A stretch of DNA of 64,000 nucleotides from a bacterium. Lineage in GTDB: Bacteria; Elusimicrobiota; Elusimicrobia; UBA1565; UBA9628. The position numbers were made by a program, and so were the translations under genes. The notes under the pieces were generated by a model that worked only from the letters and a program-made list of their open reading frames with translations, had not been told where the DNA came from and did not search any database. Where the stretch lies: positions 6,833 to 70,832 of the forward strand of contig JAJXVH010000005.1 in NCBI GenBank assembly GCA_021782205.1. Direction: 5' to 3'. Position 1 is the first letter of the stretch. The number at the start of each line of letters is the position of its first letter. Positions 7,280-56,374 of this stretch are shown piece by piece.

Positions 7280-9400
7280 ATGCGAGGCAGCGGAAGCCGC
7301 CGCCGCTGGTTGCTTGCGGTGGTGCTCGTCGCCCTCGCATCCGCCGCGCGCGCCGACCCGCTTCCGCAACAGGTTTACTATTCGACCTTCACGACATACG
7401 CGGGTTTGCCGTTCTCGATGACGCCCGATCCTGCGGGAAACGCCTACATACTATCGGATATCGGCGTCTCCGAGGTGTCGCCGCAGGGTGCGATTTCAAG
7501 CCTCGCCGGAGCCGTCAGCGGCGTTGCGTATTTCCCCATCGCACTCGCGGTCAATCCGGCGAGCGAAGCGGTGTACTACACTTGGCAGGATTGGAACTTT
7601 CTCGGCAACAACGTCACGGGTAATTACATTGTGCGGGTGGGTAGCGGCACCGTGCAGGTGCCGACGACGGCATACGCGTCCTATGTGAGCGGCGTGGCCG
7701 TGGATTCGACCACGGGGCACGTTTATGTCGTCGAGACGTATTCCAACGACGCCGCGCAATACACCAACGGCGTGCAGGTGCTTGAGTACGACTCGGCACT
7801 GAACGGTCCACTGCACAGCGCGGACATCGATCCGGGAGCGCCGGTCGACATCCAGGCGTTCGGTCAATCGGCGGTGACGGACGGTTCAGGAAACATCTAC
7901 GTAGTCGCGACCCAGTGCGGCAGCCCGCTGATGAGTCCGCCATGCGCCCTGCTGGCGGTGAAGTTCTCGCCGCACTTGGCGGGAAAGCTCTACAGCAGCC
8001 TGGTCAGTATCGGCGTTCCAGGAAATTTTCCGTTCAGCGAGGACATCGCAGTGAACCCGGCGGGCGAGGCGTTCATAGCCGGGGTCACGCCGTTGTCGGG
8101 GGTGGGGGCCAACGGCTCCAACTACTACACTGGAGGCGTGCTGGTTAAACTGAACCCGGCGGGAGCGACCGACTTCGTGAGGAACACGCTCGGGCTCGCC
8201 TCCGGCACGCAGAACAGCGACATCTACGCAGTAGCGGCGGACGCGGACGGCGACGGTTACGTGTTGGCGAACTTGTATAGCAGTAATTATCCATACGAGT
8301 CCATTGCCCATGCGGTCAAATACAGCACGGGTGGAGCCGTCGCGTGGAACTTCCCCGTTTTCAATGGGCTAGCGGGCGGGGAAGGCACGGCGATCGCGAC
8401 GGACGCGCAGGGCAACGTCTACATGGCTGGCATCAGCCAGGGTAGCGCGACTTACTTTGACGCAGCCACCATCGCGGCGAAGTACGGCCAGGTGAGTCAG
8501 AAGTTGCTGCGCATCTCGACGGGCGCTTTGACCGTCTCGCCGGCGCCGCCGACCTATCCCGGAGTCCAGTTGTCCGGCAACCCGTCGACCACGGTGGAGA
8601 TCGACCTGCTCGACGCGACCGGCGCGCCCCTGCCGCAGCAGGCCGCGGTCGACCTCGCCGTGACCGAGGCGCCGCTCTCCGGCGGGCACGCCCACGACAA
8701 CGCCCGCCCGGTCGGCACGCTCTCCTGGCAAGGCGGCCCGGCGTCAAGCTCCATGACCGCGACGACGAACGCGAGCGGACAATTGTTCGTCGTTTACGCC
8801 TCGACGTCGTTCGGCGGCCAGGAGACCATCACCGCGTCGCTCGCCGACGATGCGAGCGTTTCGACGTCGGCGGTCGTGAACGTTGGCGTGGTGGATTCCG
8901 ACGGACTGGGGCTTGTCGATCTTTCGACCTTGCCTATTGCGTCTTTTGCGCGCTTGACAGGAAACACGCTGCCGACCACCTACGCGGGCTGCCCGGGATA
9001 CTCCACGCAAAATCACCCTTCGAACCATTGGGCGACCGGCGACACGATAGCACGGGCGCTGTCGGCGATCGTCGAGTTCTACAATGAGACGGGAATCCGG
9101 CTCGGCATCAACGACATGGGCCTGCCCAACGGAGGGATATTCGACATCTGCGGGGACTGGCAGTTGACTGCTTTCATAAACAAGAGGAACAAAGTGAGCA
9201 TAAAGGGTCATCAATGTCATCGTGGCGGGAACAGTATTGATATCGACAGTAACGATGTCAACGGCATAGCCCTTACAAAACATCAGCTCCAAGTCTTGGA
9301 TGATGCGATGTCGAAATTCGGCGGGCAAAAGGTCAACGAAGGGCCAATCCACTATCAGTTTCCTGGCCCCGAGATTTGCTTCAGGAAGGGAGGACAGTGA
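7280..9400 (+). CDS. large secreted multi-domain protein: signal peptide, beta-propeller (SBBP-like) repeats, Ig-like domain, variable Cys/His-containing C-terminal domain (polymorphic-toxin-like)
   Basis: Signal peptide MRGSGSRRRWLLAVVLVALASAARA is followed by repeated G(N/D)(I/V)Y(V/M)xA..S motifs. The Ig-like stretch (8537-8746) is duplicated downstream. The last about 210 aa (DICGDW, GHQCHRGGNSIDIDSND motifs) are encoded by visibly AT-richer DNA. Confidence 0.7.
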   Translation: MRGSGSRRRWLLAVVLVALASAARADPLPQQVYYSTFTTYAGLPFSMTPDPAGNAYILSDIGVSEVSPQGAISSLAGAVSGVAYFPIALAVNPASEAVYYTWQDWNFLGNNVTGNYIVRVGSGTVQVPTTAYASYVSGVAVDSTTGHVYVVETYSNDAAQYTNGVQVLEYDSALNGPLHSADIDPGAPVDIQAFGQSAVTDGSGNIYVVATQCGSPLMSPPCALLAVKFSPHLAGKLYSSLVSIGVPGNFPFSEDIAVNPAGEAFIAGVTPLSGVGANGSNYYTGGVLVKLNPAGATDFVRNTLGLASGTQNSDIYAVAADADGDGYVLANLYSSNYPYESIAHAVKYSTGGAVAWNFPVFNGLAGGEGTAIATDAQGNVYMAGISQGSATYFDAATIAAKYGQVSQKLLRISTGALTVSPAPPTYPGVQLSGNPSTTVEIDLLDATGAPLPQQAAVDLAVTEAPLSGGHAHDNARPVGTLSWQGGPASSSMTATTNASGQLFVVYASTSFGGQETITASLADDASVSTSAVVNVGVVDSDGLGLVDLSTLPIASFARLTGNTLPTTYAGCPGYSTQNHPSNHWATGDTIARALSAIVEFYNETGIRLGINDMGLPNGGIFDICGDWQLTAFINKRNKVSIKGHQCHRGGNSIDIDSNDVNGIALTKHQLQVLDDAMSKFGGQKVNEGPIHYQFPGPEICFRKGGQ
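8537..8746. repeat. 210-bp direct repeat, copy 1 (inside the 7280..9400 gene; encodes ..PPTYPGVQLSGNPSTTVEIDLLDATGAPLPQQAAVDLAVTEAPLSGGHAHDN..TLSWQG..)
   Basis: Aligns base-for-base with 10407..10616 with about 13 mismatches and no indels. Confidence 0.85.
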
Positions 9401-9402
9401 CT

Positions 9403-10335
9403 ATGTTCCTGCATCTCGCAGTTGGTGCGTGCTGTTTTTTTCCCGGACTATTGCATGCGCAAACGCTCGCCATGCCCGCGGGAATTCCTCTTACAACCGC
9501 AACTGTCAGCGTCGCGGTGAGTTATGATCCGACGAACTATATTTTCATCTACTCCTACTCCGTGTCCAACTCCAAACAGAGTGCGGGAAAAATCGATGCT
9601 CTCAATATTGATATATCGACCGCGCCTAATGGCGCGAGCTTGGGTTCAAACGATCTTCTCAACGGTGCAACGGGATACTCTGGTTTCGGTTCGGCAACAA
9701 GCTTAGCCGATTCCGTCGGAAATGCGACTATACCAGTCGGTTTTAAATCACAGCCGGCCGGCTGGAGTTCGGGGCCAACGGCGCAATTTACTGCAAGCTG
9801 GTATGGCCCCCTTCCTCCGGGCGACTATATCGCTCCGGGAGAATCTCTTGGTGCATTTGTTCTAACCAGCCATGGCCTGCCAGGCATCCGTCATTTTGCA
9901 GTTCGGCCAGCATACAATTCCGCCGATTTTCTGCCGGGGATCGACGACGACTCCAGCGAGGCCACGCAAATTTCTGATCTCGACAACGAAATACAGCGCG
10001 TGATCCAATCTCAGGGATACACGATCGGCCCCGTTCAGCCGCCGAGCCTCACGGATAGCGGCCAGCTCCTGGATTTCATGGCCGCGCTCAAGCACCAGGC
10101 CGCCTCCCTGGGCTGGATATACGGCCCGGGCTCGGACGGGATCGTGCGAAGCCTGGACGCGAAGCTGACCGCCGCGAAGGCGTCGGCCGCCTCCGGCGAC
10201 GGCAAGGCCGCGATCAATCAGCTTAATGCCTTCATCAATGAGCTTCAGGCTCAGCGCGGCAAGACGATCAGCGACAACGCGTTCTATCTGCTCCAGCCCA
10301 ACGCGCAGTTCATCATCTCAAAACTGGGCTCATGA
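9403..10335 (+). CDS. secreted/periplasmic hypothetical protein; candidate immunity partner of the upstream C-terminal domain
   Basis: ATG at 9403 starts 3 nt after the upstream stop. Signal peptide MFLHLAVGACCFFPGLLHAQT. The gene is low G+C relative to its surroundings (especially the 5' half) and matches no known family. Confidence 0.55.
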   Translation: MFLHLAVGACCFFPGLLHAQTLAMPAGIPLTTATVSVAVSYDPTNYIFIYSYSVSNSKQSAGKIDALNIDISTAPNGASLGSNDLLNGATGYSGFGSATSLADSVGNATIPVGFKSQPAGWSSGPTAQFTASWYGPLPPGDYIAPGESLGAFVLTSHGLPGIRHFAVRPAYNSADFLPGIDDDSSEATQISDLDNEIQRVIQSQGYTIGPVQPPSLTDSGQLLDFMAALKHQAASLGWIYGPGSDGIVRSLDAKLTAAKASAASGDGKAAINQLNAFINELQAQRGKTISDNAFYLLQPNAQFIISKLGS

Positions 10336-14330: not shown

Positions 14331-16766
14331 CTACGCCGGGCCGCCGTCCAGCGTTCGGCGCAGCGCGCGCGCCAGGGCCAAGGGCTCCGCCGGTTTGCCC
14401 AGAAACGGCGCGCCGCGGCGCCGGATCTCCTGCGTCAGTTCCAGCGGCGCGAAGCCGCTCAGGAAAAGCACCTTGAGCTCCGGACGTCGAGCCTTCATGC
14501 GGTCGTAGGTTTCCAAGCCGTCCATTCCCGGCATCACCAGGTCCAAGACGACTGCGCGCACCTCCGGTTCGGCGTCCAGCACGCGCACGCCCTCTTCGCC
14601 GCCCGAAGCGCAGAGCGTCGCGTAGCCGAAGCCGCGCAGGAGTCGTTCCAGCGTGGATCGAACCATCGGCTCGTCGTCGACGATCAAGACTTTTTCGGCG
14701 CCGCGTGGCGGCGCCGCGTCGGCGACAGCCGCGGGCGCGGCTGGCGAAGGGCACGCGGGCCAATACACGCTGACCAAGGCGCCTTTCTCGGGGGCCGTCG
14801 AGATGTCCAGCCCTCCGCCGTGCTGGCGCACTATCCCGGAAACCACGGCCAGCCCCAGACCCGTGCCCTCGCCGAACGGCTTGGTCGTGAAGAAGGGTTC
14901 GAGCAGTCGCGCGCGTTCGGGCACAGGAACGCCAGGCCCGTCATCGGCGACTTCCAAGACCCAGTAGCGTCCCGGGGGCACGGGCAGCAGCGCGTCGCCG
15001 CGCCCGCGCTCCAGCGCCTCCTCGCGCAGACTCACGCGGACCGCACCCTTTCCGGAGACGGCGTCACGGGCGTTGAAGCACAGATTGAGCAGAACCTGTT
15101 CGGCTTGACCCGCATCGGCCATGACCCAGGCCGGACCGCCGCCGGTCCGCAGTTCCAGCGCGACGCGGCGACCCAACGCCGCTCCCAGCATCTTGCTCAT
15201 GCCGGCGACCAGTGCGTCGAGGTCCGTCGGCCGCCGTAGCGCCTCGCGCCGACGGCTGTAGGTCAGAAGTTGCGAGACGAGATTCCCGGCCCGCCGTAGA
15301 GAGGTGATGATGCCGTCCACGTCCGCGGAGCTGGGGTGCTGAGCGCCGAGCGATGTCAGCACGATCTGCGCCAATCCCGAGGCTGCCATCAGGATATTGT
15401 TGAACTCGTGCGCCACGCCCCCCGCCAGGCGGCCGACCGACTCCATGCGTTGGGCGCGCATCACGCGCCGCTCCTGCTCGCGCAGTTCGGTCGTCTTGAA
15501 TTCGACCAGCGCGCTGATGCGCTCCGCGCGGCCGTATAAAGTCAGCGCGATCCAGCTCGCCAGATACATCAATATCAGCACGCGTCCCAGCACCAGCCAG
15601 CGCTGCAAATCGTCCCCGGAATATTGAGGGCCCGGACCGGGCCGTGCCGCGAGGAGCCAGCGTCGTCCGGCGGCCTCCACGCTGCGCGCGGAGCCCGCGG
15701 TATCGGCGCCGTCCTTGTTTGTTGCGGGCGAAACGAGAAACTCCACCGAGGTGTCGGACCCAGACAGGCCGCGCGCCGCCTGGTCGACGTCGAACTCGCC
15801 TTCCACCGTTCCCGAGGGTCCGAAAGATCCGAACGGCCGTGCTTCGGCCCGGAGGAGCGCTTCACCGGAGCGGTGGGACGCGTCGGCGGGCTCCCGATAG
15901 AGCGCCGCTTCCGACGAGGGCGGCCGCCATGCCAAAGACAGAAGCTCCGGATGTGTCCGCAAAACGGCGCGTGCATAAGCGGAAAATTCGTTCCGATCCA
16001 CGCGTGGAAAGCTTTCAAAGAGCGCAGCCGCGCCGCGTACCGCGTTAAAGCTTGAGTCGATCTGCACCCGCAGCGTCAGAGCCGCGTCATCGAGCCGGCG
16101 CTCTGCGCGCGCGTGCGCCCGGACCTGTTCGCTTCTCAACGTGTAGTCGTGGATGGCGAGCACCAGGATCAAGGTGGCGGACATGGTCGCGGTGACGGTC
16201 GCCTTGCCGCGACGGGATCCCGCGAGTCCGCGTCCGGACCATAAAAGAATCAACGGCGCGGCAAAGACCACGCCGATGGCGTCGCCGACCCACCACGTGG
16301 CCCACGTGTAGAGCGACTGGGAGGCGGTGATTCTTCCAAAGAGAAGCAGGCCGGCCGTCCCCCAAACGGAGGCGACCAGCCCGGCCAGCGGCCCGGCGGC
16401 CATCATGAAACGGAATAGAAGCTTCTCCTCGGACAGCGGTTCGCGCCCGCCGGTCGCGCGGCGGGCCAGAGTCGCGGCGGTCAGAGCCTGGGCGGCCGCG
16501 CCCGCGCCGATCCACGCGGCCAAGAACGTCGGCGCGGCTCCGGTCGCGCCGCGCAGCCAGGCGCCCGCCGCGTTGGCGGCCAGCGAGCCGAGCAGGACGC
16601 CGGGCCACAACTCCGCGCCCCACAACCACAAGGCGGCTACGGCGATGCCCGCCGACGGCCAGGCGATCGCCGCGTAGCCGGGCGAGATGGCGAAGGCCAG
16701 GGCCGCGCCGCCTGCCGCGAAATAAGCCAGCGCCAGAATCAGAGCGCGGCGGCCACGCGAGCTCAT
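14331..16766 (-). CDS. hybrid sensor histidine kinase (MASE1-like membrane sensor, CHASE-like segment, HisKA, HATPase_c, C-terminal receiver)
   Basis: Internal ATG at 16766..16764 begins MSSRGRRALILALAYFAAGGAALAF with multiple TM helices. H-box GVAHEFNNIL, G-boxes DDGPGV / GTGLGLAVV, and a C-terminal REC (LIVDDEP..VVLDLVMPGMDG..KVLFLSGF). The 270 aa upstream in the 14331..17576 track ORF overlap the PIG-L gene out of frame and are rejected. Confidence 0.85.
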   Translation of the reverse strand: MSSRGRRALILALAYFAAGGAALAFAISPGYAAIAWPSAGIAVAALWLWGAELWPGVLLGSLAANAAGAWLRGATGAAPTFLAAWIGAGAAAQALTAATLARRATGGREPLSEEKLLFRFMMAAGPLAGLVASVWGTAGLLLFGRITASQSLYTWATWWVGDAIGVVFAAPLILLWSGRGLAGSRRGKATVTATMSATLILVLAIHDYTLRSEQVRAHARAERRLDDAALTLRVQIDSSFNAVRGAAALFESFPRVDRNEFSAYARAVLRTHPELLSLAWRPPSSEAALYREPADASHRSGEALLRAEARPFGSFGPSGTVEGEFDVDQAARGLSGSDTSVEFLVSPATNKDGADTAGSARSVEAAGRRWLLAARPGPGPQYSGDDLQRWLVLGRVLILMYLASWIALTLYGRAERISALVEFKTTELREQERRVMRAQRMESVGRLAGGVAHEFNNILMAASGLAQIVLTSLGAQHPSSADVDGIITSLRRAGNLVSQLLTYSRRREALRRPTDLDALVAGMSKMLGAALGRRVALELRTGGGPAWVMADAGQAEQVLLNLCFNARDAVSGKGAVRVSLREEALERGRGDALLPVPPGRYWVLEVADDGPGVPVPERARLLEPFFTTKPFGEGTGLGLAVVSGIVRQHGGGLDISTAPEKGALVSVYWPACPSPAAPAAVADAAPPRGAEKVLIVDDEPMVRSTLERLLRGFGYATLCASGGEEGVRVLDAEPEVRAVVLDLVMPGMDGLETYDRMKARRPELKVLFLSGFAPLELTQEIRRRGAPFLGKPAEPLALARALRRTLDGGPA

Positions 16767-17560
16767 GGCGCGAGCAGGGCCGCGACGTCGGCGTCCACGG
16801 GCGCGATCCGACCAGGGCCGGAGACGCGCGCCAGCGCCCGACCGTCCCACCGCGACAGCCGGTAGAGCGAGGCCCAAGAGGCGCCGCCCGCCGCCGCTCC
16901 CTGCCCGCCGACAAGCTCCGCGCCGCGGCGCGCGCCGTCGGCCAGCCAGCAGGGCCAGAGCGCGTGATACGGATTGCGCGCGACCTCTCCGGCGTGGCAG
17001 GTCAGCGCGGCGAGAAGGTCTCCGGCCACGGCGAGGTCGGCCTCCACCAGCGCGTTGGGGTCTTCGAGCGTGGACCAATACTCGGACTCGGCCGCGACGG
17101 CGCCGGGCTTGAGGCCCGCCCGGCGCAGCGCCGCCAGCGCGCGGCGGTGGACGGCGCGGTGGGTGGCGTTGGCGTCGCGACGGTGCGGCAGGACGATCAA
17201 GCCCGGCCGCGCGTCGCGCACGATCTCGTGCAGCGGACGGTCGGCGGCGCAGAGGAACTCCCAGCCCAGGCGCGCGCACGCGGCCGCCATCTCCGCGCGC
17301 CGCGCGCAGCGCCGGTCCAGCCGCGAGCCCAGCGTGACCGCGACCGCGATCACGCGCCAGCCGCTCTCGCGCTGAAGCCGCCGGGGCAGCACGCCCATCA
17401 GGCACTCGTCGTCGGGGTGCGGCGCCAGGATCAGCGCCGTCGGCGCTCCGGCGCGGGCGCGCGGCGCCGGGCGCGCGGGAGCCTGCGCGTTCGGCAGGCG
17501 GCGGCCCGCCGCGAGCAGGCGGGAGAAATCGCGCAGATATTTTTCGTGAGGCGTGGTCAT
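16763..17560 (-). CDS. PIG-L / LmbE-family N-acetylglucosaminyl deacetylase
   Basis: ILAPHPDDECLMG motif plus downstream His/Asp pattern; its stop overlaps the histidine kinase start (ATGA). Confidence 0.75.
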   Translation of the reverse strand: MTTPHEKYLRDFSRLLAAGRRLPNAQAPARPAPRARAGAPTALILAPHPDDECLMGVLPRRLQRESGWRVIAVAVTLGSRLDRRCARRAEMAAACARLGWEFLCAADRPLHEIVRDARPGLIVLPHRRDANATHRAVHRRALAALRRAGLKPGAVAAESEYWSTLEDPNALVEADLAVAGDLLAALTCHAGEVARNPYHALWPCWLADGARRGAELVGGQGAAAGGASWASLYRLSRWDGRALARVSGPGRIAPVDADVAALLAP

Positions 17561-17627
17561 GGGCGGCGCAGGTCAATTAGACGAGATTTGGCGCCGTGGA
17601 CTCAACGCGCCAGCGTGCTGCCCGACC

Positions 17628-17656: not shown

Positions 17657-17678
17657 CTCTCAAGCGAAGTTATGTCTG

Positions 17679-17695
17679 GCGTACAAAATGGCTCC
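17679..17695. repeat. 17-bp direct repeat GCGTACAAAATGGCTCC (att-like, left copy)
   Basis: Identical to 25566..25582, which spans the 3' end of tRNA-Asn (TGGCTCC is the reverse complement of GGAGCCA) plus 10 nt of flank. Confidence 0.75.
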
Positions 17696-17780: not shown

Positions 17781-18443
17781 CTAATGTTTTTTGGAACTCG
17801 GTAAAGGGGCTTCACAGAGTTCGATGAGTTGCTGAAGCTCCCTGAAGCGGACCCATTCCTGCGCAAGCTGTTCTCTTTTCAGATTCCCCCCGTCAGCCAG
17901 AACAGCCTTTATCTCTATATCCATTTTCTCTACATACGCGGCCAATTCAGCCTTAAGCATGCGTCGAAGACGAAGTAGCGTAAGTAGAGGACGATTAAGC
18001 TGTAACAGCTTGATCATGTATGCGGCGGGTGGTCGTTTTCCTTCGAGCGTGCCGTCAGTCTTGACCTCGAAATAGAGACGGCGATCATCCGCGAATGGAT
18101 CGATAAATCCAGCGACTCCGTCATGCGGATTTGACGGATGTGTTGAGGGCCAGCAAGAACCTTTGAGTCGATTACAGCGGCCGCAGGAATGGTGGAAATT
18201 ATTCGGATCGTTTTTGAGATGGGAGAATTCAGCGCGCGACCACGGACGGAAGTGGTCTAGTTCCATGGATTCGCGTCCACCGACTTCCATCTCGTGTGAA
18301 TCGCAGTATACGCACCTGCCGTCACAGTCGCTGGCGATTTCCTCGCGACAATGCTCGCGGAAAAATTCGTAGCTATAGAATTCGCCATTCGGCTTTGTCG
18401 AATATTTCGAACGCCTTTTAAGTTGCAGGAAAAACTCACTCAT
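17781..18443 (-). CDS. HNH endonuclease
   Basis: CVYC...ELDHFRPWS...NNFHHSCGRCNRLKG shows two Cys pairs flanking the His-Asn-His catalytic core; encoded in low-G+C DNA. Confidence 0.8.
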   Translation of the reverse strand: MSEFFLQLKRRSKYSTKPNGEFYSYEFFREHCREEIASDCDGRCVYCDSHEMEVGGRESMELDHFRPWSRAEFSHLKNDPNNFHHSCGRCNRLKGSCWPSTHPSNPHDGVAGFIDPFADDRRLYFEVKTDGTLEGKRPPAAYMIKLLQLNRPLLTLLRLRRMLKAELAAYVEKMDIEIKAVLADGGNLKREQLAQEWVRFRELQQLIELCEAPLPSSKKH

Positions 18444-18461
18444 AGCGTTCTAGACGCGGAA

Positions 18462-19097
18462 CTACGGCAAGGGAAGATCGTTTTTATTAATGTGCTTCTT
18501 CAGCTCAGCAATTGCATCCTGGAGCGCCTTAACATCACCGATTTCTTTTGCCTGCTGAGGGAGTATGCGCTCCTTTTCCAGAAGACCCATCTCGGCCGCT
18601 TCTTCTGGAGGCAATGATTCCCGCAAGCTCTTCACGAGTAAATCTTGATAGCGTTGAGCCCGAGCCCCGAGAATTTCGGCGAAGCCTCCAAGGCGTCGGA
18701 GAAATCGAGCTTTGAAAATCTGTGCGTCTCGAGTCGTCGGGTCAGCTATGGTTTTCTTCGAAATAACGTACTCGACAGCGTCGGCGTCCTTCTCAAGAGC
18801 GGGGTCGTCTGTGTAGTTTGAAAGTATCACGATAGGAAGTTTGGACATGAACCCGCGCAAGTACGCGGATAGCTGTGTACCCGTATAGCCCACACCCCCA
18901 TCCTCCATTTTTTGATCGAGAACGAGTCCGATCACTGAACCGTCTGCGAGTATAGCCGAATAATCTTCAACCTTCGGCAGAGGAGCCATTGCCTTCACCA
19001 CAATCCCGGTATCGGCAAACAGCTCTCCGAGTACCCGCGCGTATGCGCGTCGTTGTTCGTCATTCTCATCTATAAAGCAAATCGTGATTTGGTTCAT
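18462..19097 (-). CDS. stand-alone receiver (REC) domain protein with alpha-helical C-terminal extension
   Basis: REC residues at canonical spacing: acidic pocket ICFIDEND, phospho-acceptor Asp in GLVLDQKM, Ser in PIVILSNY, Lys in EYVISKK. The ATG overlaps the stop of the upstream GHKL gene (ATGA). Confidence 0.65.
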   Translation of the reverse strand: MNQITICFIDENDEQRRAYARVLGELFADTGIVVKAMAPLPKVEDYSAILADGSVIGLVLDQKMEDGGVGYTGTQLSAYLRGFMSKLPIVILSNYTDDPALEKDADAVEYVISKKTIADPTTRDAQIFKARFLRRLGGFAEILGARAQRYQDLLVKSLRESLPPEEAAEMGLLEKERILPQQAKEIGDVKALQDAIAELKKHINKNDLPLP

Positions 19098-21349
19098 GAT
19101 TTCACTTCCGGAGTCTCAATTGCTCTCGGGACGGTTATGATGAAGCATGCGCCACCTAACCCGCCCTTGGCCAGGGCTCTAACGGTACCGCCCGTATTCT
19201 CTTGCACGAACATTTTTACGATATATAGACCCATCCCAGTTCCTTCTTGCTCGCCTTTGCTATTCCGACGAGTTGAGAAACCCGCGTCAAACACTTGATC
19301 TTCAGTGCCCGCTTCCAATCCGAAGGCGCTATCCTCGAAGGTCAGGGTATAATTGGCTGGGTCTGCCTTAATTGAAAATCGAATTTTTCGTAAGCCCGGA
19401 TGCTTCGTGATTGCCCACATTGCATTTGTAATGAGGTTTGCGAAGATGCTCTCCCAATCGATAGGGTAAGCCCGAATGGGGCATTCCTCAGCAGGAAGAT
19501 CTGTCAAATCGATCTCTATTTTTTTCTGATGCTGAAGTGATTCACCGAAAGCCGCAAACACATCAAGGGCCATTTTTTTGACGCAGAAAATTCGTTGGCG
19601 ACGCTTATCCGGCCGGACGTTTCCCAAGGCGAAGCCGGCAAATGTTTGAAGCCGTTTGGCGTCCGTCCCGATGTCAGTCAAAACTTGCAAGACTTCGGCC
19701 TCTTTGTCCGACGTAACCATGAAAAAATGGGATTTCAGATTTCGATCCAGCCATAGAGAGTTCGTCGTTACCGAGTTTGCCCAGCCAGAGGTTTCGTGAC
19801 CGAAACAGGCTGCCAAAATGCCAAGAGAGGCCAGGTTTGCCAAGGTGTCTTTCTCGCGTGTCGTTTGGACGCGTAGCAGGTTCTCCTGCTTTACGTTTTC
19901 TTCAAGAGCCTTCATGGAGCGAGATAGAGTTTGCGTTACACGGGCGACAATATCACGTACCTCGTCGCCTTTGGGAGGCACCGTGACAGCGCCAGGGGCC
20001 GGCGGCATGAGCAGGTCGAGTTTCTTCGACAACTCCCCCAGTTCTAAAAGAGCCGCATCGGCCTGGGCGACTGTTTCTTTCGCATCGGCTGGAACGTCCT
20101 GCGCACCGGGCTCTTGTGTTTTGCGGGCCCGTTCGAATTTCTGATGTTGCTTTTCAAAGAAAACGAGAACCTTTTCAGAAAAGATGTAAAGGTGCCGGAA
20201 AGCTCCCCCTTTGACGAGCCCCTCGCGATTGGTCTGATCAATCAGTTCAAGGTTTCTCTCGCGGCTCAAGAATACGGCGCCGACGACTTGGTTGTAGCCG
20301 AGACGCCAATTTCCTTTTTGCTTTACGCCTTCGGGATTTATAGTTCGCCGAAATCCTAGGCGGAGCCAATCACCTTCACCGCTCGGCTCACCGTAAGGTT
20401 TTACGCGAAAGCCATCACGGTATATACGTATTCCCTGGTTATTCTTTAAGAATTGATCAAGCTGAGGACGTCGTAACGACTGACCGGGAGCGTCGAGCTC
20501 GCCTCGGTGAAAAAAATAGAACACAAGAGTTAGAGGGCCGCATCTAGGCTGATCACCCTCATTTTTCGTGAACTCAGTCCACGGCACGGGTTGCAAATGA
20601 TATTCCGTTTGATGGAGCTTCGAAGACATCCGAATTTCAACAAAACCGGCTGCATCGATGGTTCCGAGGACCTTCCAGTAAGCGTTGTTGAGTGCCGCAG
20701 CATCAGGGGTGATTGGCCCATCGAATTTCGGGAATACGCCGCCCGTATCTAATTCCACGCCGAAATCGTAAGACGCGCCGAATGGCGAAACTAGCAGGGA
20801 CAATTCGCTGTGCAGCTCCTCAATCGCAGACTCATCCCATTGATCCTTAAGTCCTTCAAGAATTAAGCGAGTGCCTTTGGGGAACTCCTGCGTCAAACCA
20901 GTTATAGGGTCTTGATTCAGGTTCTGAAGGCTGAAGATGGGGTGGCTTACTTCTTCAAGCCGGGTCGTTCCTTCCGCTTCATACTTCAGCCAATCAACGT
21001 CTAATTCCACTGCCTCGGAAGCGCCAAAGGTGATTGACTGGACGCGAGTTCGCGCACAGAGTCGATCAAGACCTAGGCGGCCAAGGCCTTTCTCCCCCGT
21101 CAGAATCCGACGCTTGCCTTCAGATTTTTTCGCAGACGCCTTGTTTGCGGTGCCTATGACCATCCAATTCGCTTTGAGCGCCTTCGATGACATCCCATCG
21201 CCATCGTCTTGAATGACCAGCGTCATCGTCGCTGTATTCAGGCCCGCAAAGCGAATGCGGACCAAATCAGCATCGGCATCGTATGCGTTCTTTACGAGTT
21301 CGAGGATCGCGGTAACAGAGCTGGAAATGCTTTCTCTGCCGAGTTGCAT
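19094..21349 (-). CDS. GHKL-superfamily protein with N-terminal HATPase_c_3-type ATPase plus a C-terminal histidine-kinase core (H-box + HATPase_c)
   Basis: N-terminal ELVKNAYDADA (N box), DDGDGM (G1), GEKGLGRLG (G2). Central ACFGHETSGW (H-box-like). C-terminal NLITNAMWAI, D..FGLEAG, GTGMGLYIVK (N/G1/G2). Start is taken at the internal ATG (MQLGRESISS..) to avoid an 82-nt overlap with the methyltransferase gene. Confidence 0.7.
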   Translation of the reverse strand: MQLGRESISSSVTAILELVKNAYDADADLVRIRFAGLNTATMTLVIQDDGDGMSSKALKANWMVIGTANKASAKKSEGKRRILTGEKGLGRLGLDRLCARTRVQSITFGASEAVELDVDWLKYEAEGTTRLEEVSHPIFSLQNLNQDPITGLTQEFPKGTRLILEGLKDQWDESAIEELHSELSLLVSPFGASYDFGVELDTGGVFPKFDGPITPDAAALNNAYWKVLGTIDAAGFVEIRMSSKLHQTEYHLQPVPWTEFTKNEGDQPRCGPLTLVFYFFHRGELDAPGQSLRRPQLDQFLKNNQGIRIYRDGFRVKPYGEPSGEGDWLRLGFRRTINPEGVKQKGNWRLGYNQVVGAVFLSRERNLELIDQTNREGLVKGGAFRHLYIFSEKVLVFFEKQHQKFERARKTQEPGAQDVPADAKETVAQADAALLELGELSKKLDLLMPPAPGAVTVPPKGDEVRDIVARVTQTLSRSMKALEENVKQENLLRVQTTREKDTLANLASLGILAACFGHETSGWANSVTTNSLWLDRNLKSHFFMVTSDKEAEVLQVLTDIGTDAKRLQTFAGFALGNVRPDKRRQRIFCVKKMALDVFAAFGESLQHQKKIEIDLTDLPAEECPIRAYPIDWESIFANLITNAMWAITKHPGLRKIRFSIKADPANYTLTFEDSAFGLEAGTEDQVFDAGFSTRRNSKGEQEGTGMGLYIVKMFVQENTGGTVRALAKGGLGGACFIITVPRAIETPEVKS

Positions 21350-21429
21350 TGCGACTCGGGCGCTTACAGAAAAGGGCGTTGTCCCAATAAATTTCCGGGA
21401 CTTGTCCTCATGCTTTTCTTGTTTTTGAT

Positions 21430-22776
21430 TCAAGCTTTGCGCTCGGTGCGTTTCGTAGTCGTCGTGTAAGGAATTGCTCCGACAGCGGCTACAGTTAGGT
21501 GCCGGCAGCAAATTCGCCGATTGAGAAATCTGTTCACCCTATTGGATTTAAGTTGCCTCATCAGGTGCAGGCAGCTCTTTAGCGTCTTATCTTTTGGCTC
21601 GCAAACAATCAGATGGTTCTCTACAGCCACTGAAGCCTTCCCAGCAATCACAGTCGCGGTGGCGCGGTAGGGATGTCCTGGACGAGAAGTCCGCCGAATC
21701 ACGACAAACGGTGCTTTATAAACGAGCCCTTTATGTTTGCGAGTTTCCGCTAATTCACGCAGGGTCCTCCACGCAGGGACAGAGCGAGGATGAATATAGG
21801 GGTGCTCTGGCCCGGATTTTTTGTCTCGGTGAGGAACCACGCGTCCGACGTGCACATCGAAGCAGTCCGAAACAGAAGCAGCCCTCGTTTTGTAGAGCGC
21901 CGGCCATCGCTTTGATTTTTTAAGGTTGGCGTCCCTTCGGACCAAGCGGAGAACAAATACATCTATGTCTGTAGTTTCATCGAAAACGCCATAAGGCTCT
22001 ACGAGATGGACTTCCGCGAGCTCACTAATGCGTTCTCTCCACTGTTCGGAAAATGAGCCAGCCCGGAGGACATCGGGCAGGATGGCGAGGACTTCGGTTC
22101 CGGGTCGACTCCTTTCAAGTGCCGTGACCATGAAAGTTGCCGCCATTGACACTCGGCCACCCGCCCAGGTGCACCCAGAGAGTGTACGAGCAAGACCAAA
22201 TGGGGGGTTCATTAAGAGGGTCGTTGCTCGTTTGTAGGTGTCCCTTTCTAATAGACCGTTGCCGATACGAATCTTCGGAAAAAGGGAAGCTATTGTCGAA
22301 TCTCCAGGTCGAGTTTGACCTAATCGCTGCCTCGCCAAAAGCACCAGCCTTGCTTTGGTCCCGTCGATGAATTCCGGCTGTAAATCGGTGCCTGCCAGTC
22401 GGCGTCCCCATAGCTCAAGGGTTTCAGACAAAGTAGCACCTAATGGCAGCGTTCTTGCCGCCGCCAGCAAGAGATCCCCCATGCCACAGGCCGGGTCATA
22501 AAAAAACCCTTCATGATGTGTAATTCCAGTCCGGCTCAGCAGGCGCGCACCCAATTCAGTCCCAGTAAAAAAGGTCCCGTGCTTTCTGCGGAGATGCCTT
22601 GAGGCAGTCTTCCGTAGCATTGTGCTTGCCTGGCCGTTTAGGGCAGCGACGGCATGTTCGTTCCAGATACCCCCCTGGTCAGGCGTACGTGCAAGTGCCT
22701 GAAGACGGGAAATATAGGTTCGGTAGCCGGCAAACGAACCGGGCCTGGGATTTTTGCGTGCGCCTACGGTAGGCAT
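21430..22776 (-). CDS. N6-adenine DNA methyltransferase, gamma class (motif I then motif IV then TRD)
   Basis: Motif I DPACGMGDLL and motif IV LLMNPPFG, with about 250 aa of C-terminal target-recognition region. Confidence 0.85.
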   Translation of the reverse strand: MPTVGARKNPRPGSFAGYRTYISRLQALARTPDQGGIWNEHAVAALNGQASTMLRKTASRHLRRKHGTFFTGTELGARLLSRTGITHHEGFFYDPACGMGDLLLAAARTLPLGATLSETLELWGRRLAGTDLQPEFIDGTKARLVLLARQRLGQTRPGDSTIASLFPKIRIGNGLLERDTYKRATTLLMNPPFGLARTLSGCTWAGGRVSMAATFMVTALERSRPGTEVLAILPDVLRAGSFSEQWRERISELAEVHLVEPYGVFDETTDIDVFVLRLVRRDANLKKSKRWPALYKTRAASVSDCFDVHVGRVVPHRDKKSGPEHPYIHPRSVPAWRTLRELAETRKHKGLVYKAPFVVIRRTSRPGHPYRATATVIAGKASVAVENHLIVCEPKDKTLKSCLHLMRQLKSNRVNRFLNRRICCRHLTVAAVGAIPYTTTTKRTERKA

Positions 22777-22950
22777 TTGAATAATTATCGCAAATCGTGG
22801 GGCTTTCCTGATGAGTTTTCTGAAAGGCTGCCTTGACGAGAAGCGAGGCGGGGTCCTTTCGATTGATCCAGTTCCGCGTCGTAGGGCCGAATTACTGAGC
22901 GCGCAAATCTGGTAGAATGAGTTACCGCTTAGCGTCCGAGGCCCCGATCA

Positions 22951-23688
22951 ATGCCAGTTATCCCAAAGGACTTAGAGCAAAGGGTTGGACGCGCGGTAGC
23001 GCACTATTGGAGAACGCTCGCCAGCCAGTCTCGAAAGCAGCGCAAGGGCAAGAAGGCTGACCGCGCCGGCCGCGCCGCCGTTGTTGCCGGCAAGCAGATG
23101 AACGGCTTCTGCCGTCTCGTCAGTGACGTTCTCACCGCGAACGGGATGCCAGAGGCGCATATCCATCTGGATAAGAAGCTTGAGCTTCCGGGCTTCTTCC
23201 GGCCGACCAAAAGATGGGACCTCGTGGTTGTTTACAAGGGAAAGCTGGTCGCCGCGATGGAATTCAAATCACAGCGCGGACCCTCCTTCGGCAACAACTT
23301 CAACAATCGTTCCGAAGAGGCCATCGGCACGGCGCACGACCTTTGGACCGCGTACCGCGAAGGCGCGTTTACCGAAAGCCCGCGGCCTTGGCTCGGCTGG
23401 TTGATGTTGCTGGAAGACTGCGAGGATTCCCGCTCGTCGGTCTCGATAGATGAGCCGCACTTCCCTGTTTTCCCTGAATTCAAAGGGACGTCGTACATGA
23501 AGCGCTACGAACTGCTGCTTCGCCGCCTCGTCCGCGAGCGCCTCTATGACTCCGCGACGTTCCTCGTGGCCACTGAAGCAGAGGGTAAGAAGGGCAAATA
23601 CAAAGAGCCCGCCGCCGACCTCCAGGCAAAGCAATTCTTCGCCAGCCTCGGCGGCCACATTGGAACTATTTTGGCGGGTCAATCGTAA
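22951..23688 (+). CDS. type II restriction endonuclease, PD-(D/E)xK fold; XhoI/PaeR7I-like by size and partner
   Basis: 245 aa with WDLVVVYKGKLVAAMEFKSQ (D..ExK catalytic motif). It sits 7 nt upstream of a gamma-class N6A methyltransferase; the family assignment rests on recollection of PaeR7I/XhoI sizes and is not verified. Confidence 0.5.
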   Translation: MPVIPKDLEQRVGRAVAHYWRTLASQSRKQRKGKKADRAGRAAVVAGKQMNGFCRLVSDVLTANGMPEAHIHLDKKLELPGFFRPTKRWDLVVVYKGKLVAAMEFKSQRGPSFGNNFNNRSEEAIGTAHDLWTAYREGAFTESPRPWLGWLMLLEDCEDSRSSVSIDEPHFPVFPEFKGTSYMKRYELLLRRLVRERLYDSATFLVATEAEGKKGKYKEPAADLQAKQFFASLGGHIGTILAGQS

Positions 23689-23695
23689 GAATAGT

Positions 23696-25381
23696 ATGCA
23701 CCCCCTCCTAAACCTCGGAGTCAAGTTCCCTCCCGAGGCCTACAACTACGGCAAGCGCACGTCCGGCGAGACTCATGGCGTCGTGTTGACCAAGCCTCAT
23801 ATCGTCGACATGATCCTGGATCTCGCGGGGTATTCAGAGAATCGCGACTTGGCGAACCTCCGGCTCTTGGAGCCGTCCTGCGGCACCGGGGCGTTTCTCA
23901 TCCCTGCCGCCAGACGCCTTGTCAGGTCCGCGCGACGGCACCGCCGCAAACCCTCACAGCTTTCTGATTGCATTCGCGCCTACGACATTGATCGTGTGCA
24001 TGTGGAAGCGACCAAGCGCGCGGTCGAGGCTGTTCTGAACGAAGAAGGCATCGGGAACGGCGCGGCCAAGAGCCTTGTCGAGTCTTGGATTCATGAGGAC
24101 GATTACCTCCTTGCGCCGCTTGGAGACGAAGGCTTCGATGCGATTGTCGGCAATCCGCCCTACATTCGGATCGAGCAATTGGCCCCGGAGCTGCAGAGCG
24201 AGTATCGCCGCCGATACGAGTCGCTCTTCGACCGGGCCGATCTCTACGTGGCATTCATCGAAAGGAGCTTGGGCCTGCTGAGGCCTGACGGAGTGCTTTC
24301 TTTCATCTGCGCCGATCGCTGGACGCTGAATCGTTATGGTGCGCCGTTGCGCAAGATCATCGCTGAGAAATTCCATGTGAAGGCATACGTCGATCTTCAT
24401 CAAGCCTCGCCTTTCGAATCGGAAGTCATCGCATATCCGTCGATCTTTGCCATCTCTCCCGGCACTCCAGGACCTGTTCCTGTCGCGCGTCTGTCCGACG
24501 CCTCTGCTGACGAATGCGCGGCTCTGATCCAGGGTCTGCGAGCTGGATCGAAGAACGCGATGATATCAACGTACCCATCCTGGTTCATCGCTGACGAGCC
24601 CTGGGTGTTGAGCCCCCCCGAGCATCTGAAAGTATTGCGTGACTTGGAATCGCGCTTCGCTCCGATTGAGGCCGATGGCAAGACCAAGGTCCGCATTGGT
24701 GTCGCGACGGGCTGCGATGCAGCCTACATCGTCGGCGATGACTCAGGCATCGAAAAGGACCGCCTCGTCCCCTTGGTCATGCGCGCCGACATCGAAAACG
24801 GCAAGCTCAAAAACAATCATCATTTCGTGATCAACACGTTCGATGAAGCGGGGCGGACGATCAAGCTGGCAGACTACCCGCACTTGCGCAAGCACCTTGA
24901 CGCTCACGGCCTTGAGGTTAAGCGCCGGCATGTCGCGCAAAAGAATCCGGACTCGTGGTTCCGGACGATTGATCGAGTCTATCCGGAGCTGGTGAAGGTC
25001 CCGAAACTCCTGATCCCAGACATCGCTGGATCGAATGAAGTGGCCTTGGACAAGGGGCATTACCATCCGCATCACAATCTCTACTACGTCACGTCCGATG
25101 CTTGGGACATGGCCGTGCTTGGCGGGCTTCTCAGCTCCAAGGTCGCGCTGTTCTTCATCTGGTCATACGCGACGAAGATGCGGGGCAGCTACCTGCGCTT
25201 CCAGGCGCAGTATCTCCGGCGCATTCGGATTCCGAAGCCGGAGGATATCGCGCCGCAGTTGGCCAGCGACCTCCGCGAGGCCTTCATTGCGCGCGACTTC
25301 AAGCGGCTGGACGTGCTGGCGCTTCGCGCCTACAAGCTCAAGTCTCTCCCCGAATTCGACTTCGTCGATACCAGGAAATAA
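23696..25381 (+). CDS. N6-adenine DNA methyltransferase (cognate to the upstream endonuclease)
   Basis: ATG at 23696; motif I EPSCGTGAFL, motif IV GNPPY; 561 aa. Confidence 0.85.
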   Translation: MHPLLNLGVKFPPEAYNYGKRTSGETHGVVLTKPHIVDMILDLAGYSENRDLANLRLLEPSCGTGAFLIPAARRLVRSARRHRRKPSQLSDCIRAYDIDRVHVEATKRAVEAVLNEEGIGNGAAKSLVESWIHEDDYLLAPLGDEGFDAIVGNPPYIRIEQLAPELQSEYRRRYESLFDRADLYVAFIERSLGLLRPDGVLSFICADRWTLNRYGAPLRKIIAEKFHVKAYVDLHQASPFESEVIAYPSIFAISPGTPGPVPVARLSDASADECAALIQGLRAGSKNAMISTYPSWFIADEPWVLSPPEHLKVLRDLESRFAPIEADGKTKVRIGVATGCDAAYIVGDDSGIEKDRLVPLVMRADIENGKLKNNHHFVINTFDEAGRTIKLADYPHLRKHLDAHGLEVKRRHVAQKNPDSWFRTIDRVYPELVKVPKLLIPDIAGSNEVALDKGHYHPHHNLYYVTSDAWDMAVLGGLLSSKVALFFIWSYATKMRGSYLRFQAQYLRRIRIPKPEDIAPQLASDLREAFIARDFKRLDVLALRAYKLKSLPEFDFVDTRK

Positions 25382-25487: not shown

Positions 25488-25560
25488 GTCGAAAATAAAA
25501 CTGACCTTGCGCCCTCTACCGGACCTGGGCTTCCAGGTCGAGGGCGACAAAGTCAGTTTT
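25488..25560 (-). terminator. rho-independent terminator of tRNA-Asn (island-borne copy)
   Basis: Long imperfect hairpin AAAACTGAC..CGCCCTC / GAGGGCG..GTCAGTTTT; on the minus strand it is followed by ATTTTCGAC. Confidence 0.55.
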
Positions 25561-25565
25561 GATGA

Positions 25566-25582
25566 GCGTACAAAATGGCTCC
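25566..25582. repeat. 17-bp direct repeat GCGTACAAAATGGCTCC (att-like, right copy, overlapping the tRNA-Asn 3' end)
   Basis: Identical to 17679..17695. Confidence 0.75.
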
Positions 25583-25650
25583 GGGCGTAGGATTCGAACC
25601 TACAACCTTGCCGTTAACAGCGGCCTGCTCTACCGTTGAGCTAGCCCGGA
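25576..25650 (-). tRNA. tRNA-Asn (anticodon GTT), CCA encoded
   Basis: Reverse complement TCCGGGCTAGCTCAACGGTAGAGCAGGCCGCTGTTAACGGC..GGTTCGAATCC..GCCCGGAGCCA; anticodon loop CTGTTAA. Confidence 0.85.
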
Positions 25651-55600: not shown

Positions 55601-56108
55601 TGATGTTCGGCTCGTAGGACGAGTGCACGCCGATCACCGCGCCATTGGGGGCGATGTGTACCTTGACCGAGGCAAACTCCACGGGAAGGCCTTTGTAGCT
55701 CTGCCGGAACAGCACGTGATTGTGGCCTGCGCCTCGGGTTTGGCGCTCGAAGCTCAGCGTCGCTGGATCGAGCCCGAGCATATCTGGGTGAGCGTTGATA
55801 AATGAAAGGCCGATCTCCTGCGGCGTGCCGTAGCGCGGCGTGTCCGCTCCGCCCACAAGAGAAGTCGGAATGCCGGTGCGCGGGCTGTAACGCAGCTTCC
55901 ACGTGCGGCCCTGCGCTGCGTTGAAGGCCGAGAACGCCGCGGCCGCCGCAGGCGCGTGGCCCTTGCGCATCTGCGGGAAGGCGCGATTAAAACCGAAGCG
56001 CGTGCGGTCGCGCGCGGCGTCGGGGCCGGGCTTGACGGCGTCAGCCTGAACGGCGGCCGCAAAGAACGCCGCCGCCAATGCGGCGCGCAACGCGAGGGCT
56101 CGTCTCAT
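52671..56108 (-). CDS. secreted zinc metalloprotease (HEXXH) with T9SS-type C-terminal sorting domain
   Basis: ATG at 56108..56106 gives MRRALALRAALAAAFFAAAVQA; HHEYTHYIVN (HExxH); N-terminal propeptide-like region; C-terminus ..NWNGRNSAGNVVASGVYIVRGRGPGIDSTQKIVVVK fits the SGVY..R..TxKxVVxK CTD pattern. Confidence 0.6.
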   Translation of the reverse strand: MRRALALRAALAAAFFAAAVQADAVKPGPDAARDRTRFGFNRAFPQMRKGHAPAAAAAFSAFNAAQGRTWKLRYSPRTGIPTSLVGGADTPRYGTPQEIGLSFINAHPDMLGLDPATLSFERQTRGAGHNHVLFRQSYKGLPVEFASVKVHIAPNGAVIGVHSSYEPNINLPTAPSVSASAAQATAAADAGGGTALGTPTLVVLPSETDGLPHLAWKLTVRAPGAAWRYYVDALAGQVLLRYNTHQFVSGTVTGQIFDIDPVKTPTRYARAFADQYVYVGGVPLRLTTDVSGNYTTAVNYPVAMSLQGPYVSVAEFRGTGAHYDNGGCSPGGGSCATQGGLWEQCTTPGATPNPYPFGGVYSSTLTAAACPYPAVSMIPEFSQFNVGVFSDQTQVGGEGGALVQDDQVGVYDPAGAALGSYVGLNPNIAPVPPGVFGNTNHGPESHGQSVLLALSAKGGSNSGYVVGVSSALYFVNPTAPGTLPSSHVWSSSDTFTPGTPTVSIDCPSPGAACPNLHGEISLFYHLNLMHDFFMNGSSGFYSTAYSPGVNACPSCPGGQYAPIPGPVAAMAHVGPDLLNAFFDPDFDDLFFGDGSGISPSDAFEDDATVPHHEYTHYIVNKIWSLVNFGQAGTISEANADYFSASSLNDPNIGSYINFFYGQYNGIYGTYGPLRALDCAANPPCYNLSANTPGWSGEIHADSPFVSQALWDIRKVMGQQCADNLEFQALLFFPESFNELYDALILADKAGAAGCGGAGMASSEITVAFNAHIPDAVSQSGEDAYEPNDSFDTATDISTIPALSATIYPIGDQDFYTFGAGPGLVTATMKLPLTSYALSTYYAYQLQLFNSAHQIVASAAPPYNGIGTYGGYCQNGNSQISGCATSASQVSLSYNNPSGGQLYLEVLGGTLANGPSDVNSTTPYSLSVSYQHGNALASGIVTASYGGDTISFQVNVTTYVSTQLYHLAYVQLRDQGQNAMANTNTSLAGSVLALATQQNSGGQISGTVQLQPGYLSSFPAVGTVYLEVFGYDVLGSTVSLGVSNALNLTGSGAGSLTAYNNLFDPLKGQQAVIKYSTSGSGTMKLVIYTVLGEPVTTLFDGPVPEGMGSINWNGRNSAGNVVASGVYIVRGRGPGIDSTQKIVVVK

Positions 56109-56166
56109 CTGGCGCGAGAATATCACTTGGTCGTTACGAGATTGTTGCGCGACGCGTCAAAAAAAT

Positions 56167-56238: not shown

Positions 56239-56374
56239 CACGGGCGATTGTAAGATAATCCAGCGGACGGCGCCAGGAAATTTCAGCGCGGCGAAGAAAG
56301 ACAGTCGACAATATGGCGGTCCTTTCGCTCGGAGCATCGATAGTCCGAGCTGACGCTGCCGTGGGTGCGCCATT

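Follow-up and report, generated by a model that had tools for sequence, protein, structure and literature searches.

Ambrosia is an antiphage defence system that was described recently in Pseudomonas aeruginosa (van den Berg, Costa, …, Brouns, bioRxiv, 30 Sep 2025, 10.1101/2025.09.30.679545). Here, we compare it with a four-gene cassette located at positions 17781-22776 of a 64,000-nt stretch of DNA (the window; GenBank assembly GCA_021782205.1, contig JAJXVH010000005.1, forward-strand positions 6,833 to 70,832) that belongs to a metagenome-assembled genome (MAG) of an Elusimicrobiota bacterium. According to the preprint, Ambrosia comprises AbrR, a HipB-like XRE protein; AbrA, an N6 methyltransferase; AbrB, a HATPase/histidine kinase; AbrC, a receiver protein stated to carry a winged helix; and AbrD, an HNH protein. 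The system protects P. aeruginosa against two phage groups, every gene is required, and the AbrB N40A, AbrC D60A, AbrD H60A and AbrA T72A mutants lose defence. Reporters at the abrA and abrD positions were barely expressed until infection and were then induced. Phage that had been grown on cells expressing AbrA lost none of its sensitivity, that is, AbrA-methylated phage was restricted, and no host toxicity was reported. A cblaster search of RefSeq recovered 537 instances, all of them in Gammaproteobacteria (10.1101/2025.09.30.679545).

A related pair of kinase-like and receiver-like proteins beside methylases had already been described computationally in 2021, as HEF_HK (PF19191) and Response_reg_2 (PF19192) pairs adjacent to restriction-modification genes (Bellieny-Rabelo et al. 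2021, PMC8011034). Like the window cassette, these pairs combine a soluble kinase-like protein, in which HATPase_c_3 is followed by DHp and HATPase_c domains, with an adjacent receiver-like protein without a known output domain, a methylase upstream and HNH-type nucleases nearby, and a paraMORC ancestry was proposed for them (PMC8011034). The partners of this family are mainly C5 methylases and HNH_2, and its description is purely computational, with no defence phenotype. Neither PF19191 nor PF19192 was matched at E <= 10 by the kinase or receiver of the window or by any of four related kinases, and membership in this family was rejected. The GHKL ATPases of the prokaryotic MORC/paraMORC type that are encoded in restriction-modification operons (Iyer, Abhiman & Aravind 2008, PMC2292703) likewise have an N-terminal GHKL domain and an S5-type transducer and occur together with DNA methylases and HNH nucleases; in the window, by contrast, a complete histidine-kinase core follows the corresponding module in the same protein, a receiver accompanies it, and the helicase partner is absent.

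For all four proteins of the cassette, Pfam, PADLOC v2 and NCBIfam returned generic domain matches only, so that the profile searches proposed in the first-pass annotation, which had been made from the letters alone, verified the domains and yielded no named system. The identification came from a full-text literature search and from BLASTP against the protein sequences in Table S1 of the Ambrosia preprint. The four core proteins of Ambrosia and those of the cassette are homologous, are encoded in the same order in one cluster and agree in length (448, ~747-779, 209-211 and 213-220 aa). Moreover, the residues found to be essential in P. aeruginosa are identical in the window, with N40 of AbrB corresponding to N21, D60 of AbrC to D61, H60 of AbrD to H64 and the FFT threonine of AbrA to T71. 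The comparison with AbrB was limited to the first 399 aa of the published sequence; the locus of Pseudomonas sp. AOB-7 (L020) bridges the two families, its AbrB being 94% identical to the published protein at the N-terminus and 41% identical to the window kinase over the full length. The first-pass annotation had proposed a defence system that could not be mapped to any named one. The phage restriction by the Pseudomonas homologue (10.1101/2025.09.30.679545) speaks for the first half of this proposal, and the gene-for-gene homology to AbrA-AbrD overturns the second half, since it places the genes in an already described system. Judged by its protein sequences, the window cassette is not a new system but a taxonomically distant new member of the Ambrosia family. 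Collectively, we read it as a distant, abrR-less, four-gene member of this family that reached an Elusimicrobiota bacterium by horizontal transfer, within a 7.9-kb islet at tRNA-Asn, a reading to which we assign a probability of about 0.8, and homology predicts that it protects its host against phages.

The cassette differs from the published system in its host, an Elusimicrobiota MAG as opposed to exclusively Gammaproteobacteria in the preprint, in a receiver protein that models as a receiver domain plus a helical hairpin instead of the winged helix stated for AbrC, and in the lack of an AbrR/XRE gene. The 174-nt gap between abrA and the neighbouring XhoI gene (22777-22950) contains no open reading frame (ORF) longer than 34 aa. 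When upstream ORFs were examined at 42 related loci, an XRE ORF was found only in the Pseudomonas loci L020 and L057; on a Deinococcus plasmid, an annotated helix-turn-helix regulator gene lies directly upstream of the methylase.

The four minus-strand ORFs (21430-22776, 19094-21511 as the longest ORF, 18462-19097 and 17781-18443) encode, in transcription order, the N6-adenine methyltransferase, the GHKL/histidine kinase protein, the receiver protein and the HNH nuclease. The probable start codon of the kinase gene (TTG 21433) overlaps the methyltransferase stop codon in a TTGA sequence (21430-21433), the kinase stop and the receiver start overlap in ATGA, and 18 nt separate the receiver gene from the HNH gene. 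The overlaps and the short spacer indicate one translationally coupled operon, and because the kinase start overlaps the methyltransferase stop, all four genes are tightly coupled. The motifs ELVKNAYDADA, DDGDGM, ACFGH518ETS, LVLD61QKM, ELDH64FRP and NPPF lie at the expected codons of the translations. The gene order, the ELVKNAYDADA, DDGDGM, H-box and NPPF motifs, the ATGA overlap and the 18-nt gap had been given by the first-pass annotation, and the ORFs and translations bear them out. Its fusion of GHKL and histidine kinase domains was likewise recovered by Pfam and fold searches; its length of 751 aa for this protein is probably too short. The gene most likely starts at TTG 21433, yielding 779 aa, and not at ATG 21349, because the 28 residues upstream of that ATG (…KFIGTTPFSVSARVA) match the conserved N-terminus of the homologues, because the homologues are 775-785 aa long and because of the TTGA overlap. 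The public gene calls also start at ATG 21349 (751 aa) and cut off these 28 conserved residues. Residue numbers of the kinase are given here in the 751-aa numbering, in which N21 equals N49 of the 779-aa form.

The AbrB-like protein combines two ATPase modules. Its N-terminus matches Pfam HATPase_c_3 (aa 11-127, 1e-16) and the NCBIfam model of the BbrUII/HgiDII restriction enzyme N-terminus (1e-21), and the NCBIfam AtoS match spans aa 505-744. N21 lies within ELVKNAYDADA, DDGDGM occupies aa 47-53 and GEKGLGRLG corresponds to the lid. In Foldseek searches with a structure model (pLDDT 71), ~455-480 N-terminal columns aligned with SMCHD1 (6mw7, 7e-11) and MORC3 (6o1e, 9e-11), and the C-terminal ~250 residues aligned with the DHp and catalytic domains of ZraS, HK853, CpxA and YycG (1.8e-12 to ~1e-11). 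A sequence search of the PDB with the MORC-like module gave no matches, and its relatives emerged from the fold search alone. Long helices, modelled at residues 382-412, 422-447 and 461-541, would join the ATPase module to the kinase core. Across 16 sequences with identities down to 27%, the N-terminal ATP site (N21, D48, G50, G52 and K87), the H518-E519 pair and the ATP site of the kinase core (N638, N642, D673, G677, G703, G705 and G707) are invariant, which argues that both ATPase sites and the phospho-histidine are under selection. No transmembrane segment was found in the protein, the maximum Kyte-Doolittle value over 19 residues being 1.28. Together with the model, these features suggest that AbrB is a soluble sensor in which long helices connect a MORC/SMCHD1-like module with a conventional kinase core, an architecture consistent with the paraMORC lineage of GHKL ATPases that are linked to restriction-modification (PMC2292703). 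As a separate observation, the first 122 residues of the kinase GHKL domain match a product named ParaMORC3 of Escherichia phage PhiR44_1 (PV340563.1, 8668-9027; 31.7% identity, 1e-6), so that GHKL/paraMORC modules also occur in phage genomes.

The AbrC-like protein adopts the receiver fold over aa 1-117, with D61 (codon 18915-18917) as the predicted phospho-acceptor, and D10, D61 and K114 are invariant across the homologues; the Pfam Response_reg match reached 0.0063 only. In an AlphaFold monomer model built from 33 homologues (pLDDT 78, falling to 64-72 in the last helix), the receiver domain is followed by a hairpin of two long helices (aa 123-159 and 164-205). Profile searches to E <= 10 and fold searches with the model detected no winged helix or other DNA-binding domain, in agreement with the earlier description of a receiver that has no DNA-binding output. 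The window protein thus does not display the winged-helix output that the preprint states for AbrC; as AbrC aligns over its whole length, this mismatch may reflect the preprint statement rather than non-membership. The NCBIfam model NF052378 ("LM5578_1851 family response regulator") gave weak matches to the window receiver (28.8 bits) and to the receiver of locus L056 (22.5 bits), below its cut-off of 150, which hints at a related curated Listeria family; no paper mentioning LM5578_1851 was found in the literature.

The alignment of the methyltransferase with AbrA covers 339 aa and brings the FFT, DPACG and NPPF motifs into register. In the window protein, these correspond to motif X (FFTG, aa 69-72), motif I (DPACGMG, aa 94-100) and motif IV (NPPF, aa 190-193, 22198-22209), and the family matches are PADLOC MTase_II (3.5e-9) and, weakly, Pfam N6_Mtase (0.0011). 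In the HNH nuclease, LDHFRP aligns with AbrD and H64 (codon 18252-18254) is the predicted catalytic residue. The CxxC..DH..N..HH..CxxC core recognized in the first-pass annotation is readable in the translation as C44xxC47, D63-H64, N81/N82, H84-H85 and C87xxC90. The protein matches Pfam HNH (5.8e-7), PADLOC PtuB (7.7e-16) and TIGR02646, "retron system putative HNH" (1.9e-8, with a score of 34.5 that lies under the cut-off of 52.15).

To follow the cassette across bacteria, we searched for relatives of its proteins. AbrB relatives are present in 394 of ~185,000 species-representative genomes (one per GTDB species), and the AbrB family, searched for in 1.84 billion proteins with E <= 1e-30, numbers 853 representatives at 50% identity. 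The window kinase itself gave more than 1,400 word-index matches, the 49 closest full-length matches, which cover at least 99% of the query, being 50-80% identical. For synteny, 77 loci were fetched, and in tblastn comparisons with the window and Ambrosia proteins 61 loci were testable on both sides. The order methyltransferase-kinase-receiver-HNH was kept in 47 of the 61 testable loci and, at a kinase identity of at least 30%, in 47 of 55. With the same order retained in so many loci of many phyla, the association of the genes is not due to chance, and the proposed check of neighbourhood conservation came out in favour of co-occurrence. The cross-phylum synteny and the translational coupling also uphold the earlier view of a single functional cassette rather than an ordinary two-component system beside restriction genes. 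The four-gene loci come from Planctomycetota, Verrucomicrobiota, Chloroflexota, Pseudomonadota, Spirochaetia, Desulfobacterales, Polyangia and a Deinococcus plasmid. Among the hosts are Candidatus Kuenenia, many Verrucomicrobiota, Chloroflexota, Pseudomonas, Vibrio, Klebsiella, Shewanella and Photobacterium, together with Spirochaetia, Desulfobacterales, Polyangia and Nitrospiraceae. Plasmid carriage was found in Klebsiella variicola (pBM374-1, L082) and Deinococcus gobiensis (P2, L083, NC_017791.1 397192-402805). The Ambrosia cassette is therefore far more widespread than reported, occurring in many phyla and on plasmids as against Gammaproteobacteria only. The Deinococcus version has a helix-turn-helix regulator, and an Eco57I-type methylase stands where AbrA would be; the kinase gene of the Klebsiella copy is annotated as three separate coding sequences and is probably a pseudogene.

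More distant relatives keep the kinase in other company. In the loci with kinases of 26-31% identity (L069-L077), neither an AbrA-type methylase nor an HNH gene is present, and in L075 and L076, the two loci whose upstream gene was scanned, a C5 cytosine methylase occupies the methylase position. Their kinase genes are followed by a gene for a protein of 384-413 aa (288 aa in L077), such as L075:10192-11433, L072:10018-11172 and L076:10145-11338. Pfam recognized an N-terminal receiver in the proteins of L075 and L072, the two that gave a match. The C-terminal part of ~270 aa matched no Pfam, PADLOC or NCBIfam family; it carries conserved GDI, PxCD, FLPG and VDFQ motifs and could be an uncharacterised effector domain. 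In L056, L061 and L064, the kinase is accompanied by an upstream protein of 657-726 aa, which in L056, the one scanned, is an Eco57I-type methylase, and by a receiver-like protein of 256-265 aa. Since these distant variants have other methylases and other receiver partners, the kinase-receiver chassis seems to be modular with respect to both methylase and effector.

Several other defence systems share individual components with the cassette. Detocs, in which His-Asp phosphotransfer serves defence, consists of the kinase DtcA, the Hpt protein DtcB and the receiver-effector DtcC, and it is not known to include a methyltransferase. The likeness to the window cassette lies in the phosphotransfer, and the difference in the MORC-like ATPase sensor of the cassette; the ORF inventory contains neither an Hpt protein nor a receiver-effector fusion, and PADLOC gave no Detocs match. 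Septu shares with the cassette an ATPase partner and an HNH protein of the same clade as PtuB and the retron type I-A HNH. The partner here is a GHKL-kinase with a receiver and not the ABC/SMC-like PtuA, and no PtuA-like ATPase gene was found among the window ORFs or by PADLOC, although the HNH protein matches PtuB models. Among the MADS models of PADLOC, only mad2 was matched, through the generic catalytic core of the methyltransferase (1.4e-9), and the other mad models miss the kinase, the receiver and the HNH protein; the methylase of the neighbouring XhoI pair scores higher on mad2 (9e-20) than the cassette methyltransferase. BREX was rejected as well, as PglZ and BrxC ORFs are absent and PglX models were matched weakly and by the neighbouring Eco57I-type methylase only. 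The first-pass annotation had distinguished the cassette from Detocs, and the missing components confirm that it is not Detocs, MADS or BREX. A figure legend in the DefensePredictor paper lists a predicted HATPase+REC system, which could not be matched to the window cassette (PMC13092281).

The conserved sites allow a route of signalling to be proposed. An infection cue would act on the MORC-like module of AbrB, the putative sensor, and lead to autophosphorylation at H518, from which the phosphate would pass to D61 of AbrC. Phospho-AbrC would then license the PtuB-type HNH nuclease AbrD, the candidate effector, and AbrA would be required in a role other than classical self-protection, as judged from the Pseudomonas system only. 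The relay steps are supported by the loss of P. aeruginosa defence upon mutation of N40 in AbrB and D60 in AbrC (10.1101/2025.09.30.679545). The output step could be protein-level gating through the coiled-coil hairpin of AbrC, which we rate at somewhat less than an even chance. PtuB-type HNH proteins normally act in complexes with an ATPase, as in Septu PtuAB. We prefer this gating over transcription because no DNA-binding domain is detectable in the receiver, because abrR stands outside the conserved core and because the HNH clade works with ATPases. The position of abrR outside the core further suggests that the kinase-receiver pair itself supplies the control needed for a safe nuclease. 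An output of some other kind, such as control of AbrA or of the ATPase of AbrB itself, appears unlikely.

These considerations have to be set against the model of the preprint taken unchanged, in which AbrB senses infection, phosphorylated AbrC activates transcription of the operon, and the HNH protein, as a type IV-like nuclease, cuts AbrA-modified DNA. The reporters at the abrA and abrD positions of P. aeruginosa, barely expressed before infection, and the continued restriction of AbrA-pre-methylated phage agree with this model, as do the abolition of defence by AbrC D60A and the conserved basic residues in the first C-terminal helix of AbrC. It sits less easily with the absence of abrR here and at most loci, with an HNH protein of the PtuB/retron I-A clade rather than a known modification-dependent clade, with the lack of host toxicity in the preprint and, in a weak test, with the lack of an evident shared block in the 160-nt regions upstream of abrA from seven related loci and the window. 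We regard it as plausible but somewhat less likely than protein-level gating. The phosphorylation-gated nuclease envisaged in the first-pass annotation is possible: the effect of D60A and the undetected DNA-binding domain are compatible with it; the authors of the preprint favour transcriptional control instead. With no recognisable DNA-binding output in the receiver, nuclease gating and transcriptional induction merit a direct comparison.

The same annotation had also invoked self-protection by methylation, as in a restriction-modification system in which AbrA shields the host and the phosphorylation-gated HNH nuclease cuts unmethylated invading DNA. Such a system would account for a methyltransferase gene that always comes first and is translationally coupled to the kinase gene, for the exchange of methylase type (C5 or Eco57I-type) among distant variants, as restriction-modification systems do, and for the resemblance of the GHKL N-terminus to BbrUII/HgiDII restriction enzymes. 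The full sensitivity of phage grown on AbrA-expressing Pseudomonas cells contradicts it there, as methylation is evidently not a protective mark in that system, and the PtuB-like HNH clade has no known ability to sense sequence or methylation status. We hold it to be improbable, and classical self-protection is the least supported reading of the mechanism. Generic family scans and the equally generic RefSeq annotations of homologous loci would even accommodate four unrelated neighbours, an ordinary two-component pair flanked by an orphan methylase and a stray HNH gene; given the order kept in 47 of 61 testable loci of many phyla, the 4-nt overlaps between adjacent genes and the individual requirement for all four homologues in P. 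aeruginosa, this is extremely improbable. More speculatively, the four-gene cassette might be the pan-bacterial core of Ambrosia and the XRE gene a Pseudomonas add-on. The MORC-like ATPase would then sense invading DNA, and after the His-Asp relay the receiver-coiled-coil adaptor would activate the HNH nuclease directly, with no transcriptional switch, while distant variants would swap the methylase and fuse a ~270-aa domain to the receiver in place of the HNH protein. We consider this wider scheme less likely than not.

Several points weigh against assigning the cassette to Ambrosia and against protein-level gating as its output. The window proteins are only 32-46% identical to the validated ones, so that the defence role in this organism is a predicted one, and the sole experimental source is a preprint without peer review (10.1101/2025.09.30.679545). 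abrR is missing here, yet AbrR mutants are reported to lose defence in P. aeruginosa (10.1101/2025.09.30.679545); the four-gene form may behave differently or depend on a regulator encoded elsewhere. The infection-induced reporters and the winged-helix statement speak for transcription, and hence the only experimental data favour regulated expression over protein-level gating (10.1101/2025.09.30.679545). The evidence for the apparent lack of a DNA-binding domain consists of an AlphaFold model of the monomer and negative profile searches, and the first C-terminal helix of the receiver protein carries conserved basic residues (K129, R131, R134 and R149) that could bind nucleic acid. Finally, no REC-HNH fusion was found among 73 close HNH homologues (140-242 aa).

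The genomic setting of the cassette is summarized with its features in Table 1. The G+C content drops from ~0.67 in the flanks to 0.51-0.59 between 18 and 26 kb. The direct repeats, which extend to 28 nt at 82% identity (17668-17695 and 25555-25582), enclose the 7.9-kb islet, whose six genes form two defence modules, the four-gene cassette and an XhoI-family restriction-modification pair. The G+C profile, ARAGORN and the Pfam and PADLOC matches thereby corroborate the low-G+C island at tRNA-Asn beside a second restriction-modification pair that the first-pass annotation had outlined. There is no integrase among the six genes, and the islet could be an integrative element that has decayed or travels by hitch-hiking. 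The alanine dehydrogenase encoded in the flank clusters, at 90% identity or more, with proteins of Elusimicrobiota MAGs only, and the same locus is also present in GCA_027325245.1.

Table 1. Coordinates of the cassette, its predicted protein domains and its genomic surroundings (positions in the window)
Feature	Position	Strand	Basis and remarks
AbrA-like N6-adenine DNA methyltransferase, 448 aa	21430-22776	-	BLASTP to AbrA, 37% identity, 2e-68
AbrB-like MORC-like GHKL ATPase with histidine-kinase core	19094-21433	-	BLASTP to AbrB N-terminus, 46%, 5e-112; Pfam
MORC/SMCHD1-like ATPase module (GHKL and transducer), aa 1-410	20120-21349	-	Foldseek, NCBIfam, conservation
DHp helices, aa 461-576; predicted phospho-acceptor H518 (codon 19796-19798)	19622-19969	-	Model helices 461-541 and 547-576
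Kinase-core catalytic ATP-binding domain (N-box, G1, G2), aa 632-743	19121-19456	-	Pfam HATPase_c, 1.5e-19
AbrC-like receiver protein, 211 aa	18462-19097	-	BLASTP to AbrC, 32% identity end to end, 4e-32
AbrD-like HNH nuclease, PtuB/retron type I-A clade, 220 aa	17781-18443	-	BLASTP to AbrD, 43%, 1e-47
Direct repeat GCGTACAAAATGGCTCC, left copy, 17 nt exact	17679-17695	.	Repeat search, spacing 7887 nt; coincides with G+C step
Direct repeat GCGTACAAAATGGCTCC, right copy	25566-25582	.	Overlaps last 7 nt of tRNA-Asn gene (3' end)
tRNA-Asn (GTT)	25576-25650	-	ARAGORN; insertion landmark of the island
Ordinary type II restriction-modification pair (context only, outside cassette)	22951-25381	+	Divergent; Pfam and PADLOC
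XhoI-family (XhoI/PaeR7I-type) endonuclease	22951-23688	+	Pfam XhoI, 1e-89; PADLOC REase_II, 3.7e-93
Eco57I/TaqI_C-type N6 methylase	~23693-25381	+	PADLOC MTase_II, 1.3e-189

For the Eco57I-type methylase, the longest ORF begins at 23546 and overlaps the endonuclease gene by 143 nt, and the ATG at 23693 is the likelier start. Elsewhere in the window, the G+C content is also lower at 9001-10000 (0.53) and at 56000-60000 (0.57-0.62), the second stretch adjoining a tRNA-Arg gene (56167-56238). No defence genes were seen in these two stretches, which encode a FIMAH-domain protein, an FG-GAP/ASPIC repeat protein, an RnfD-like fragment and YebC. Immediately outside the island, the minus strand carries a hybrid sensor kinase gene (14331-17576; publicly annotated as MASE1-HisKA-HATPase_c-REC) and a PIG-L deacetylase gene (16763-17560), the ORF of the latter being overlapped by a mechanically listed ORF of 1081 aa; both are host genes unrelated to the cassette.

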